Translations under genes and position numbers: made by a program
The notes under the pieces: generated by a model
What the model was told of the DNA's origin: nothing
Databases searched by the model: none
What the model saw: only the letters and a program-made list of their open reading frames with translations
DNA from: Alphaproteobacteria bacterium
Lineage (GTDB): Bacteria > Pseudomonadota > Alphaproteobacteria > GM7ARS4 > G965262615
Direction of reading: 5' to 3'
Assembly (NCBI GenBank): GCA_965262615.1
Contig: OZ253545.1
Coordinates: forward strand, 1,056,001 to 1,120,000
DNA: 64,000 nucleotides
Part shown: piece after piece, positions 58,864 through 64,000 of the stretch
Numbering within the stretch: position 1 is the stretch's first letter
How the letters are laid out: each line of letters opens with the position of its first letter

Positions 58864-59989
58864 ATGTCCTCCCCCTCCCCTTCCCATGATGACCAAAACC
58901 TTGAGAGCGTCAAACGCGACATTCGTGATGCATTGGCGATGCTCGGGAGGCGTCTTTGACGAACGAGGCTTGGGCAAGCGTCTCGCCGAATTGGAAGAGC
59001 TCACCGCGCGAGATGATTTGTGGAATGACCAAGAAAACGCCTCTCGGTTGTTGCGAGAAAAAACCCGCCTTGAGGCGCAGCTGCAGCGTTTTGCCTCATG
59101 GGAGCAACGGTGGGAAGATGCTCTGACGCTGGAGCAGTTGGCGCAGCAGGAATCCGATGATGAGGTGTTGCGGGAGGTGGCGGAATCCTTGTTGCCGCTG
59201 CATGGCGAATTAATGCAGGCGCGGTTTTTGACCATGATGGAGGGCGAGGCTGACCATCGGGATTGTTTCGTTGAGATTCATGCGGGCTCCGGCGGCACAG
59301 AGGCACAAGACTGGGCGGAGATGTTGCTGCGCATGTATATGCGCTGGGCGAATCGCCGTGATTTTGCCTGTGATTTCATTGAGAACAATGCCGGACAAGA
59401 AGCCGGCATCAAATCGGCAACCATTCGCATTGATGGTGAGTATGCCTATGGCTGGCTGAAGCGGGAGTCGGGGGTTCATCGCTTGGTGCGGCTCTCGCCG
59501 TTTGATTCCGCCATGCGCCGTCATACCAGTTTTGCCTCAATCAAATGCTATCCGGTGATTGATGACTCCATTGATATTGTCATTGAGGATAAAGATTTAC
59601 GCATTGACACCTATCGCGCTTCGGGCGCGGGCGGACAGCATGTCAACAAAACCGACAGTGCGGTGCGGATTACCCATTTGCCCACATCGCTGGTGGTGCA
59701 GTGTCAAAATGATCGCTCGCAGCATCGCAACAAGGCGGCGGCGATGACCATGCTCAAAGCCAAACTGTTTGAGCTGGAACTGCAAAAGCGCGAATCAGAA
59801 AAACAAGCCGGCAGACAGGCGGAAAAGGACATCTCGTGGGGCAATCAAATTCGCTCCTATGTGCTCCATCCCTATCGCATGATCAAAGACCTGAGAACTC
59901 ACCACGAGAGCGGCAACACCGATGCGGTATTAGGTGGCGAAATTGATGCCTTCCTGCAGGCATCTCTTACCGCCCAGCTGGAGTCATGA
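58864..59989 (+). CDS. prfB: Peptide chain release factor 2, programmed +1 frameshift
   Basis: ATG 58864 reads to CTT TGA, then the +1 frame carries SPF, GGQ and WGNQIRSYV. Confidence 0.96.
58945..58960 (+). promoter_or_regulatory. RF2 autoregulatory +1 frameshift site
   Basis: GGGAGG-CGT-CTTTGAC: internal SD 3 nt before the slippery CTT-TGA-C. Confidence 0.95.
59914..59989 (+). repeat. prfB 3'-end repeat, copy 1 (functional)
   Basis: CAACACC GAT GCG GTA TTA GGT GGC GAA...GAG TCA TGA = NTDAVLGGEIDAFLQASLTAQLES*. Confidence 0.9.
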
Positions 59990-61315
59990 GGATAAATTGA
60001 TTTCATTCAAAACTTTTTGAGCTTCGGCATAACCTTGTTTGGCAGATTCCTTTAGCCATTTCAACGCTTCTTTAACATCCTGCGTTACACCCTCGCCTTT
60101 GAAATACACTCCACCCAGAAGATATTGAGCTTTGGCAAGACCTTGTTCAGCAGCTTTTTTGTACCAATTGAACGCCTCTTTTTGATCCTGTGCTACACCC
60201 TCGCCATCGAAATAAATCACACCTAGATTATACTGGGCTTCATCCAATCCTTGTTCAGCAGCTTTTTTAATCCACTTGACTGCTTCTTTTTGATTATGCG
60301 TCACAGCCTCGCCTTTGTGATACATCACACCTAGATTATATTGTGCTTCGGCATGACCTTGCCCAGCAGCTTTTTCAAACCACTTAACTGCTTCTTTTAT
60401 ATCCTGTGTCACACCCTCGCCATTGAAATAAGCCAAGCCTAGATTACATTGGGCTGGAACATGACCTTGCTGGACAGCTTTTTTATACCAATTGACTGCT
60501 TGGGTTGTATCTTTCGTAATACCATCGCCTTCATGATAAACCACACCAAGATTGTATTGGGCTTCGACAATACCTTGTTCAGCAGCTTTTTTGTACCAAT
60601 TGAACGCTTGGGCTTTATCCTGTGCCACACCCTTGCCATTGGTATAAAACACCCCTAGATTATATTGTGCTTCGGCAAGACCTTGTTCAGCAGCTTTTTC
60701 AAACCACTTGATTGCTTTTGTTTGATCTTGCGTCACACCATCGCCATTGGCATAAAACACCCCTAGATTACATTGGGACTCGGCATGACCTTGTTCAGCA
60801 GCTTTTTTGTACCATTTCGCCGCTTTTTTATAATCTTGCGTCACTCCTTCACCCTTGGCATACATGATACCAAGATTGCATTGGGCTTTGGCATAACCTC
60901 GTTGGGCAGCTTTTTCAAACCATTTGGCAGCTTCGTTGTAATTCTTAATAGAAACACATTCTAAACCGTAGTTGAAATACCCCTGTGGAGAGCCAAAAAA
61001 CAAACCCTCTATAAATAAAACCAAATTTTTAATGCCAGTAGGAATGTCAGCATCTATGTTATTTGTCATTAGTTGCAACAGTTTAATAATTTTGTGGGGA
61101 AATCTAGCAATGCCAAAGAGGACAATCGCAAAGATTCCCAATTCTACTAACAATTCTTCCAGCTTATTCACTATTAAGCCAAAAGCGAAAAGCAATACAC
61201 AGATGCCAACTGCCCCTACACAGAGACAAAGTAACATCGCAAGGGCTTTCTTCCAATTGCGAGGCGCGTACTCTTTGATGAATTCTAATATGATTTTCAA
61301 ATTAGAATCAGCCAT
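59984..61315 (-). CDS. Membrane-anchored Sel1-like repeat protein (~8 repeats)
   Basis: MADSNLKIILEFIKEYAPRNW, 2 TM segments, SLR repeats. Confidence 0.95.
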   Translation of the reverse strand: MADSNLKIILEFIKEYAPRNWKKALAMLLCLCVGAVGICVLLFAFGLIVNKLEELLVELGIFAIVLFGIARFPHKIIKLLQLMTNNIDADIPTGIKNLVLFIEGLFFGSPQGYFNYGLECVSIKNYNEAAKWFEKAAQRGYAKAQCNLGIMYAKGEGVTQDYKKAAKWYKKAAEQGHAESQCNLGVFYANGDGVTQDQTKAIKWFEKAAEQGLAEAQYNLGVFYTNGKGVAQDKAQAFNWYKKAAEQGIVEAQYNLGVVYHEGDGITKDTTQAVNWYKKAVQQGHVPAQCNLGLAYFNGEGVTQDIKEAVKWFEKAAGQGHAEAQYNLGVMYHKGEAVTHNQKEAVKWIKKAAEQGLDEAQYNLGVIYFDGEGVAQDQKEAFNWYKKAAEQGLAKAQYLLGGVYFKGEGVTQDVKEALKWLKESAKQGYAEAQKVLNEINLSS

Positions 61316-61366
61316 GCACTGGACATACCATACTTGCCCCCCCTCCGTCCATGTTTTTCACAACAC
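61316..61366 (-). promoter_or_regulatory. Conserved SLR-gene leader
   Basis: GTGTTGTGAAAAACATGGACGG...TG-G-TATGTC-N6-ATG. Confidence 0.65.
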
Positions 61367-61431
61367 TGAGGCGATTAGGCGGCGACATTGACGAATTCCT
61401 GCAAGCATCACTCACTGAGCAGCTGAAGTAA
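61361..61431 (+). repeat. prfB 3'-end repeat, copy 2 (orphan)
   Basis: Reads NTEA[-2 nt]LGGDIDEFLQASLTEQLK*. Confidence 0.88.
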
Positions 61432-62622: not shown

Positions 62623-63708
62623 TCATAATCTTTCTTTGATTTTATTCAAGGCTTCTTGAGCATCGCCATGACCTTGCTCGGCGGCTTGTTGCCACCATTC
62701 CATCGCTTTTTCCGTGTCTTGCGGGACACCCTCGCCAGTGAAATAAATGATGCCCAGATAGAACTGAGATTGGGTAAAACCTTGCTGGGCGGCTTTGGTA
62801 ATCCATTGTGCCGCCTGCCGATCATTTGCTTCCACACCGTAGCCATCGTAATAAGCCACGCCCAGATTATGCTGAGCGAAAACAAAACCCTGTCCAGCCG
62901 CTTTTTTGAACCATTTCACGGCTTGTGTTTGATCCCTCGTAATGCCATCACCATTGGCATACGCCATACCGAGATTATGCTGGGCGAGAACAAAACCCTG
63001 TCCAGCCGCTTTTTTATACCACCTGACGGCTTCTTTTTGATTCTGCGCGATGCCATCACCATTGGCATACGCCACAGCGAGATTGTGTCGGGCGAGAACA
63101 AAGCCTTTGTGGGCGGCTTTTGTGTACCATTTGACGGCTTCTTCTTGATCCTTCGTAATCCCATCACCGTTGGCATACGCCACGCCGAGATTGTATTGAG
63201 CAGCGCCAAGATTTTGCTCCGCCGCTTTTGTGTACCACTTGACGGCTTGTGTTTGATCCTTCATAATCCCATAGCCATTGTGATAAGCCACACCCAGATT
63301 GAATTGGGCTTGGGCAAGACCTTGTTCAGCAGCTTTTTGAAACCATTTGCCAGCTTCGGTGTCATTCTGGCTCAAAAGACATTCCACACCGTATTGAAAA
63401 TACCCGCGCGGCGAGCCGAAAAACAAACCCTCCACGAAGAAAAGCGATTTTTTAATGGAAGTTGCCATGTCATCATGTGACATCGGCGGCAATGATTGAA
63501 TCATGGCGGGGGAAAACGCGGCAACGAGAAAGAGACAATTCAACAACAATCCCAAGACTTCTGGCAGTCTTCCCAGCCCATCCGTTGCCGCCATAAGGAG
63601 CAGAACAGGAAAATTGCAACAAATAAGTCTTGCAAGAGCCTCCGACAAATCGCGAGGCAGTTGTTCTTTGATGAATTCTAATGTGATTTTGGTATCAGAA
63701 GCAATCAT
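62623..63708 (-). CDS. Membrane-anchored Sel1-like repeat protein (~6 repeats)
   Basis: MIASDTKITLEFIKE and FVEGLFFGSPRGYFQYG match the N-terminal family of the 13951 and 61315 genes. Confidence 0.93.
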   Translation of the reverse strand: MIASDTKITLEFIKEQLPRDLSEALARLICCNFPVLLLMAATDGLGRLPEVLGLLLNCLFLVAAFSPAMIQSLPPMSHDDMATSIKKSLFFVEGLFFGSPRGYFQYGVECLLSQNDTEAGKWFQKAAEQGLAQAQFNLGVAYHNGYGIMKDQTQAVKWYTKAAEQNLGAAQYNLGVAYANGDGITKDQEEAVKWYTKAAHKGFVLARHNLAVAYANGDGIAQNQKEAVRWYKKAAGQGFVLAQHNLGMAYANGDGITRDQTQAVKWFKKAAGQGFVFAQHNLGVAYYDGYGVEANDRQAAQWITKAAQQGFTQSQFYLGIIYFTGEGVPQDTEKAMEWWQQAAEQGHGDAQEALNKIKERL

Positions 63709-63757
63709 GCGCCGGACATACCACGACTGCACTTTTCAATCAATATTTTGACAACAC
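63709..63757 (-). promoter_or_regulatory. Conserved SLR-gene leader (diverged)
   Basis: GTGTTGTCAAAATATTG...GTGCAGTCG-TG-G-TATGTC-N6-ATG. Confidence 0.55.
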
Positions 63758-63829
63758 CAAGAGGCGGTATTAGGTGGCGACATTGACAAATTTTTGCAGG
63801 CATCTTTGACTGCCCAATTGGAGTCATGA
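63752..63829 (+). repeat. prfB 3'-end repeat, orphan copy
   Basis: Reads NT[+2 nt]EAVLGGDIDKFLQASLTAQLES*. Confidence 0.92.
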
Positions 63830-64000
63830 TGATTTTTTAACTACACTCAAGGCTCTTCGAGCTGGGACATAACCTTGTTCATCAGCTTTTTCAAGCCACT
63901 TGACACCTTCTTTTTGATCCTGCGTCACACCCTCGCCTTTACCATAAGCCACACCTAGATTATATTGAGCTGGGGCATCACCTTGTTCGGCGGCTTTTCG
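63824..64000 (-). CDS. Sel1-like repeat protein, 3' end only
   Basis: Manual translation: RKAAEQGDAPAQYNLGVAYGKGEGVTQDQKEGVKWLEKADEQGYVPARRALSVVKKSS*. Confidence 0.9.
   Translation of the reverse strand, partial: RKAAEQGDAPAQYNLGVAYGKGEGVTQDQKEGVKWLEKADEQGYVPARRALSVVKKSS

Follow-up and report, generated by a model that had tools for sequence, protein, structure and literature searches.

What has placed copies of the end of an essential gene at the unit boundaries of a tandem array of other genes? This question is raised by a stretch of 64,000 nt (the window), positions 1056001-1120000 of the complete, single-contig 1.54-Mb genome of an alphaproteobacterium (GenBank assembly GCA_965262615.1, contig OZ253545.1; completeness score 98.3%), in which prfB, the gene for release factor 2 (RF2), is followed by genes for Sel1-like repeat (SLR) proteins. 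A reading made from the letters of the window (the sequence-only reading) had proposed that small circles were inserted by a recombinase at the hexamer CAACAC in prfB, in chronological order. We consider it probable, at roughly 0.7, that the array arose by a tandem duplication at a microhomology, with the prfB end included in the duplicated segment, and that it was then reshaped by unequal recombination, by slippage of repeats, and by gene conversion both within and between strains. The fallback that the sequence-only reading had offered, namely tandem duplication with homologous exchange between strains, fits better than the cassettes that it had preferred.

Five SLR units downstream of prfB

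Downstream of prfB there are five tandem units, U1 to U5 (1447, 1254, 1137, 1067, and 1379 nt), three and a half of which lie inside the window, and all of the SLR genes are on the minus strand. Each unit is composed of the last ~76 bp of prfB, an SLR gene on the opposite strand, and a short promoter-like leader, and the pairwise identity among the units is 65-75%. The hexamer CAACAC is found at the junctions J1 (61361), J2 (62615), J3 (63752), J4 (64819), and J5 (66198), with a sixth copy in prfB at 59914. The existence of units on one plan with a common junction was confirmed, and the hexamers at 59914 and at J1 to J3 lie exactly where the sequence-only reading had placed them; extension of the contig past 64000 (where the coordinate in the locus sequence L001 is the window coordinate minus 58000) added J4 and J5, giving five units. 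The coordinates of the features are collected in Table 1.

The prfB gene contains a canonical +1 frameshift site (CTT TGA C at 58954-58960, with GGGAGG before it), and domains PF03462 and PF00472 were found in its product, for which homologues have 96% identity and then 66% or lower. The 76-nt tail of prfB, from CAACAC to the stop codon (t0), was used as the query in a sensitive BLASTN search of the whole 1.54-Mb genome, a check that had been set beforehand. Besides prfB itself, only copies in the array were matched, at 63752-63829 (80.8% over 78 nt, E = 1.4e-13), at 61361-61429 (77.5% over 71 nt, E = 1.1e-9), and, as a weak fourth copy past the window, at window-equivalent 64862-64904 (71%, E = 0.059). 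As had been claimed, the similarity of the copies after J1 (t1) and J3 (t3) starts at the first base of CAACAC, which is base 1 of the query. Direct repeats of the prfB end, as expected of an element integrated at the 3' end of a gene, flank the unit DNA (at 61361 and 63752, and the weak one at 64862); the copy after J4 (t4) is decayed, and after J2 and J5 there are mere stubs, the J5 stub being CAACACTTAGCG.

PF08238 Sel1 repeats were found in the genes of all five units (E = 1e-57 to 1e-123), and three types of N terminus (A-type, signal-peptide-like, and a third) were read from the translations by eye. The A-type gene of U1 (A1) has an N-terminal hydrophobic region that, judging by its translation, probably spans the membrane, and the stop codon of A1 overlaps that of prfB in the palindrome TCATGA. 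The last eight codons of the U2 gene (B2) are the antisense of tail t1, and its likely start is the ATG at 62583 (MNWHKAN...). The gene of U3 (A3) likely starts at the ATG at 63708 (MIASD...), which matches its orthologue P0134; the C terminus of P0134 reads ...KIKARS compared to ...KIKERL in A3. The U4 gene is broken by a 1-nt frameshift near L001 6350-6372 (window-equivalent 64350-64372), with an apparent extra base in the first Sel1 repeat, into a 146-aa N-terminal open reading frame (ORF) and a 182-aa Sel1 ORF, and the split reflects a pseudogene or else an error of the assembly. The 146-aa ORF had no family match, unlike all other large ORFs of the units, which matched Sel1.

Two further observations concern the same genes. 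The B2 gene contains two identical 64-nt stretches (61979-62042 and 62195-62258), 216 nt apart, which are a recent duplication of two repeats within the gene. There are also plus-strand ORFs of up to 274 aa antisense to the SLR genes (60449-63480); they are taken to be by-products of the codon structure of the repeats, and not genes, because they track the 108-nt repeat period.

Table 1. Features of the prfB locus and of the SLR array (window coordinates; L001 or window-equivalent coordinates past 64000)
Feature	Position	Strand	Remarks
prfB (release factor 2)	58864..59989	+	ORF0 58864-58956; stop TGA 59987-59989
Tail t0	59914..59989	+	working last 76 nt of prfB, CAACAC to TGA (NTDAVLGGEIDAFLQASLTAQLES, then stop)
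U1 gene A1	59984..61315	-	443 aa; A-type N terminus; 8 Sel1 repeats
U1 leader and J1	61316..61366	-	CAACAC 61361-61366; gene sense GTGTTG TGAAAAACATGGACGG...
Silent tail t1	61361..61431	+	71 nt; 2-nt deletion after CAACACTGAGGCG; core LGGDIDEFLQASLTEQLK, then stop
U2 gene B2	61408..62607	-	399-aa ORF; signal-peptide-like N terminus; 9 Sel1 repeats
U2 promoter-like site	62590..62617	-	TTGCAA-16 nt-TATAGT; consensus match only
J2 stub	62615..62622	+	CAACACTG; tail deleted, A3 stop directly after
U3 gene A3	62623..63732	-	369-aa ORF; A-type N terminus; 6 Sel1 repeats
J3 and silent tail t3	63752..63829	+	78 nt; 2-nt insertion near 5' end; core LGGDIDKFLQASLTAQLES, then stop
U4 gene	63824 to about 64787 (L001 5824-6787)	-	third N-terminal type; 4 Sel1 repeats; part in window, 63824..64000, is the 3' part
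U5 gene B5	64883-66190 (window-equivalent)	-	signal-peptide-like N terminus; 10 Sel1 repeats

In the sense of the SLR genes, the junction reads GTGTTG and then CAAAAA(C)ATGGACG.... A strict 17-nt pattern of leader plus junction, with at most two mismatches allowed, matched J2, J3, and J5 but no other site linked to an SLR gene; the leaders of J1 and J4 have 1-nt indels and were recognized by direct inspection. At three of the five junctions (J2, J4, and J5), there is a TTGCAA-16 nt-TATAGT or TATAAT match on the gene strand, by consensus only, in which the -35 hexamer shares bases with that of the junction and an ATG lies 6 nt past the -10 hexamer. This arrangement suggests that units may have their own promoters and may make leaderless transcripts. 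Promoter-like matches on the plus strand also fall inside SLR genes.

The same module, GTGTTG with a leader of the CAAAAA or TGAA type and then an ATG, was found ahead of five SLR genes outside the array (genome positions 1069902+, 1128185+, 1128782+, 934203-, and 933623-), where the chance expectation is about one match per strand. No prfB-tail-like sequence was found upstream of these five leaders (z at most 2.2). Therefore, the hexamer belongs to the 5' module of SLR genes, and prfB merely shares it, as would be expected after a founding duplication at a microhomology. The claim that CAACAC is an insertion site is not supported here, the hexamer being the upstream edge of a promoter-like SLR module that is present elsewhere without the tail. 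One of the five leaders, GTGTTG-CAAAAA without a prfB tail, is at window position 13902 (genome 1069902) and precedes a 471-aa SLR gene at 13951-15366 on the plus strand, 46 kb from the array; the first ~25 residues of this gene product are nearly those of A1 (MADSNLKIILEFIKEYAPRNW...).

Silent tails, strain variation, and the RF2 C terminus

The 54-nt cores of t0, t1, and t3 differ pairwise at 12-13 nt, yet at just 2-4 amino acids in the RF2 frame, and the differences are mainly at third positions or are CTG/TTG changes. In a codon test against random substitutions, this gave P = 0.0147 for t0/t1, 0.00015 for t0/t3, and 0.0005 for t1/t3, the pair in which both tails are silent. Neutral decay in situ of silent tails after one duplication was rejected by this test.

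A cluster of RF2 sequences at 90% identity, obtained from ENA and Logan assemblies, has 13 members, which we took as close strains, the 96% identity to the RF2 of this genome having been measured for the representative only. Thirteen tails were compared, namely that of this genome and those of 12 cluster members, with the N-terminal fragment P0125 left out. It was found that the 13 sequences have 12 different 24-residue C termini, that 8 of the 24 tail positions are polymorphic compared to 31 of 318 elsewhere in RF2 (Fisher p = 0.0026), and that at least four haplotypes are present in 14 of the 15 pairs of common polymorphic tail sites. The core of t1 is the same as the working tail of P0128 (18/18), and that of t3 the same as the working tail of P0001 (19/19). 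Therefore, the spare tails serve as working RF2 ends elsewhere, and the mosaic tails of the strains indicate exchange inside the 76-nt tail, not solely at CAACAC.

As judged from these comparisons, the working RF2 C terminus is exchanged with the silent copies, and in the set of sequences compared no other part of the protein is as polymorphic or as mosaic as the tail. The proposal that the tail copies are replacement RF2 ends is borne out in part, in that they are coding-constrained and equal to the working ends of others; the part of it that confined exchange to CAACAC does not agree with the mosaic tails.

Differences in the array itself were seen in X1, a marine metagenome run with a 25-kb contig that is ~95% identical to this genome over PBP1A-prfB. 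The X1 strain keeps J2 and J3, and its first SLR gene is without 216 nt, which is two Sel1 repeats. One X1 contig joins L001 6835 to 8271, with 210 letters beyond the joint, 154 of which were placed, leaving ~56 between. By the arithmetic of this joint, X1 appears to lack exactly one unit (U5), the net 1379 nt being the distance from J4 to J5. Unit content and repeat number therefore differ between strains, and apparently also unit number, a comparison that the sequence-only reading had asked for. The X1 contig is taken, from its equal length of 25438 nt, as the contig that encodes P0130, and on it a DIDK-type tail, which is linked to unit 4 in this genome, lies beside the A1-like 3' end of the neighbor gene. 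It follows that a tail and the gene beside it are not passed on together as a single block.

Only two relatives of the A-type N terminus, with 48-51% identity to A1 there, were found among 5.8 billion proteins, and one of them is P0134, which by inspection is the A3 orthologue. This small number indicates that the SLR set is strongly strain-specific. Among the nearest 40 genomes in the comparison set, RF2 identity was at most 60%, and none of these belongs to the same family; a scan of metagenome contigs likewise gave at most 60%.

A parallel was sought at 100 further prfB loci followed by 300 nt of sequence or more, drawn from 108 loci in which the RF2 match nears the end of the protein. Weak matches to the prfB tail were present in 14 of the 100, and only one was convincing, in a genome from another family of the same class (G029; locus L112, C18:1-5600). 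In this genome a prfB-tail copy (alignment score 27.5, compared to a shuffle maximum of 16) is located ~1.14 kb past the prfB stop, between one convergent lipoprotein-like gene and its decayed paralogue, which lie in tandem and converge on prfB. The duplicated block consists of the last 39 nt of prfB and 89 nt beyond, with 81% identity over 131 nt, and it is an ordinary two-unit tandem duplication, which shows that copies of the prfB end can arise without cassette machinery. Of the weak matches, those inspected in loci L041, L048, L075, and L106 were discarded, as they lie inside ordinary ORFs of other genes, and that in L042 is the same match as that in L041.

Duplication, import, or insertion

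In the explanation that we favor, an ancestral SLR gene would have abutted prfB, the two stop codons overlapping in TCATGA. Because of this overlap, a duplication of the whole SLR gene must break inside prfB. In the founding event, the GTGTTG that marks the upstream edge of the promoter module of the SLR gene would have been joined to its counterpart in prfB, which reads CAACAC on the plus strand, and the resulting 6-bp microhomology junction would have been passed on to all later units. The microhomology is present in both parents, as CAACAC in prfB and as GTGTTG at the five outside SLR leaders without a tail. In the existing array, U5 could have been gained or lost by slippage or recombination at the common junction motif, and the number of Sel1 repeats would change within genes. 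Crossing-over within tails would yield chimeric working tails, as predicted from the mosaic tails and not seen directly, and gene conversion would act among the copies of the tail, both inside one strain and from strain to strain. The RF2 C terminus would in this way be swapped among the copies as a by-product, so that the copies would stay under selection. Each unit would probably express its own membrane-anchored or secreted SLR protein, and we infer that the SLR proteins form a fast-evolving, strain-specific set of candidates for host interaction. There is no full tail after J5, which matches n tails for n units, as tandem duplication predicts.

Several points weigh against this explanation. 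The 65-75% identity among units and the three N-terminal types exclude a simple recent history of duplication and call for extensive divergence or for exchange with other paralogues. No more than ~14 bases are identical between J4 and J5, which makes the unit-precise absence of U5 in X1 a poor substrate for RecA, and a site-specific event would account for it just as well. Given the stubs after J2 and J5, there may once have been n + 1 tails in the array, the number expected under an insertion model. Promoters were called by consensus match only, the order of tails and units in other strains is deduced and not seen in their DNA, and the four-haplotype patterns, at weakly constrained residues, could in part be due to recurrent mutation.

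The explanation that comes next, which we think unlikely, shares the duplication origin and proposes that units now move mainly between strains, where ordinary homologous recombination of imported DNA adds or replaces units. Recombination would use prfB at one side and a leader, a tail, or Sel1 repeats at the opposite side, and the silent tails would be imports from strains where they had been the working end. This would account for the 22% nucleotide difference of t1 and t3 from t0, compared to ~5% for prfB between this genome and X1, for the presence of the silent cores as working ends in other cluster members, and for the high strain specificity of SLR content. However, proteins alone cannot separate import from gene conversion within a genome, and the proposal overlaps with the duplication explanation favored above more than it excludes it.

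Less likely still is site-specific insertion, in which circular units of leader, CAACAC, and tail would integrate in prfB, replace the RF2 end, and push older units downstream, by means of a recombinase acting in trans (host XerC/XerD or an unrecognized family) and perhaps also at GTGTTG sites elsewhere. Such cassettes would agree with the constancy of the hexamer at six places, with silent tails that are coding-constrained and have cores equal to the working tails of other members, with an X1 strain that appears short of exactly one unit, with the tail stubs after J2 and J5, and with the greater decay of t4 compared to t1 and t3. Literature searches, at title and abstract level, gave no account of prfB serving as an attachment site, and so the system would be undescribed.

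The difficulty is that the machinery was not found. There is no integrase, transposase, or terminal inverted repeat within the five units, as the sequence-only reading had also noted. No IntI gene adjoins the array, and the whole genome contains two PF00589 tyrosine recombinases, at 22 kb and 409 kb, for which the best NCBIfam matches are XerD and XerC and which score 122.9 and 106.4 bits with an integron-integrase model that has a cut-off of 265; genes of the serine recombinase, rve, DDE_Tnp_1, Y1, and TnpB types were absent from the complete genome. The five junction stretches have no attC-like fold (z of -1.24 to +0.37 for single-strand DNA folds, compared to shuffled sequences) and no inverted repeats. 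A dif-like sequence at genome position 1080854 (window 24854), near the maximum of the cumulative GC skew, was found with a short motif and at most three mismatches, and is possibly a dif site; it is unlike the junctions, judged by eye only, and Xer might still act on them. A search for joints that would fit a unit circle gave none among 15 inspected (of 212), in four runs that consist of contigs and are unable to show rare circles; many of the inspected joints fall in Sel1 repeats, which are likely to match one another. This outcome does not speak against circles.

Other observations also disagree with insertion of cassettes. GTGTTG and its leader stand at five other SLR genes without a tail, crossovers lie inside the mosaic tails, and the type of tail is unlinked from the neighbor gene in the X1 strain. 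Promoter-like consensus matches, seen in three of the five units, may count against it as well. The idea that the newest unit lies next to prfB and that older ones have been pushed downstream is not supported by the only difference in units observed between strains, which is distal and not prfB-proximal. Taken together, with no recombinase candidate beyond the XerC/XerD-like genes and no attC-like fold, the proposed insertion of small circles in chronological order was not upheld.

An assembly artefact, in which strain variants of one locus had been strung in tandem, is very improbable: although the samples contain several strains (seen as variant letters), the 65-75% identity of the units is far beyond strain variation, and separate short-read contigs bridge J1 (public runs X8 and X9, 0 differences) and J2 and J3 (X1), so that the array is not a product of this assembly.

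With regard to the genome context, there are 150 Sel1-repeat matches in the 1.54-Mb genome, most of them at 1.069-1.160 Mb (in the window, this includes 13146-15366), and a few at 74 kb, 899 kb, 933 kb, 1.39 Mb, and 1.50 Mb. The concentration surrounds the cumulative GC-skew maximum (~1.08 Mb), which is likely the terminus. Midway through the SLR-rich DNA that separates prfB from leuS, at L001 8779-11937 (window-equivalent 66779-69937), a PAPS-reductase-domain protein (451 aa, PF01507) is encoded directly before a GmrSD-type restriction endonuclease (594 aa, PF03235 and PF07510), a pair that by its domains looks like a small defence island.

Comparison with known systems

The array resembles an integron (IntI, attI, and attC) in the stacking of single genes at one site and in the constant short junction motif. 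In contrast to integrons, there is no IntI and no attC-like palindrome or fold, and the junction motif is part of the promoter module of the cargo family and is also found elsewhere. The promoter-like consensus matches at three of the five junctions may also set the units apart from promoterless cassettes, which are read from a common promoter at the insertion end. With integrative elements that target gene ends, such as tRNA and tmRNA islands and SXT/R391, the array has in common a duplicated gene end, of which the proximal copy keeps the gene intact. SXT/R391 elements integrate site-specifically in prfC, at its 5' end. The prfB array differs from such elements in having no integrase beyond the XerC/XerD-like genes, in single-gene units of 1.1-1.4 kb, and in mosaic tails. 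If cassettes were nevertheless the true explanation, this would be a new kind of gene-cassette system, in which strains would trade host-interaction genes at an essential-gene site and each event would rewrite the RF2 C terminus.

The pilE/pilS system of Neisseria and the vlsE system of Borrelia are silent-cassette gene conversion systems. One expressed tail (t0) and the silent t1, t3, and t4, apparently exchanging tracts and giving many mosaic alleles, are similar to these. The variable segment is here, however, the 24-residue end of a housekeeping factor, and the SLR genes are complete and not silent. The variation of the RF2 end is most likely a by-product and not an evasion device. The silent tails also illustrate that apparent dead gene fragments can remain under protein-coding constraint.

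As a rule of thumb, a gene fragment is to be expected at every unit boundary when a duplicated gene abuts a convergent neighbor, and such boundary fragments alone are no evidence for a cassette recombinase. The cargo is of the same Sel1-repeat type as in the expanded Sel1, TPR, and ankyrin "eukaryotic-like" gene sets of host-associated bacteria, and published titles and abstracts name Sel1, ankyrin, and TPR proteins as enriched in bacteria that live with sponges. The closest likeness under the duplication explanation is to tandem duplication arrays under concerted evolution, which have the same head-to-tail units, common junction, varying numbers of units and repeats, and mosaicism. In contrast to such arrays, the repeat unit here takes in the 3' end of an essential gene, the RF2 C terminus is rewritten, and the spare ends are constrained; the locus is a clear case of a fast-changing array of candidate host-interaction genes whose repeat unit has come to include the end of an essential translation factor.

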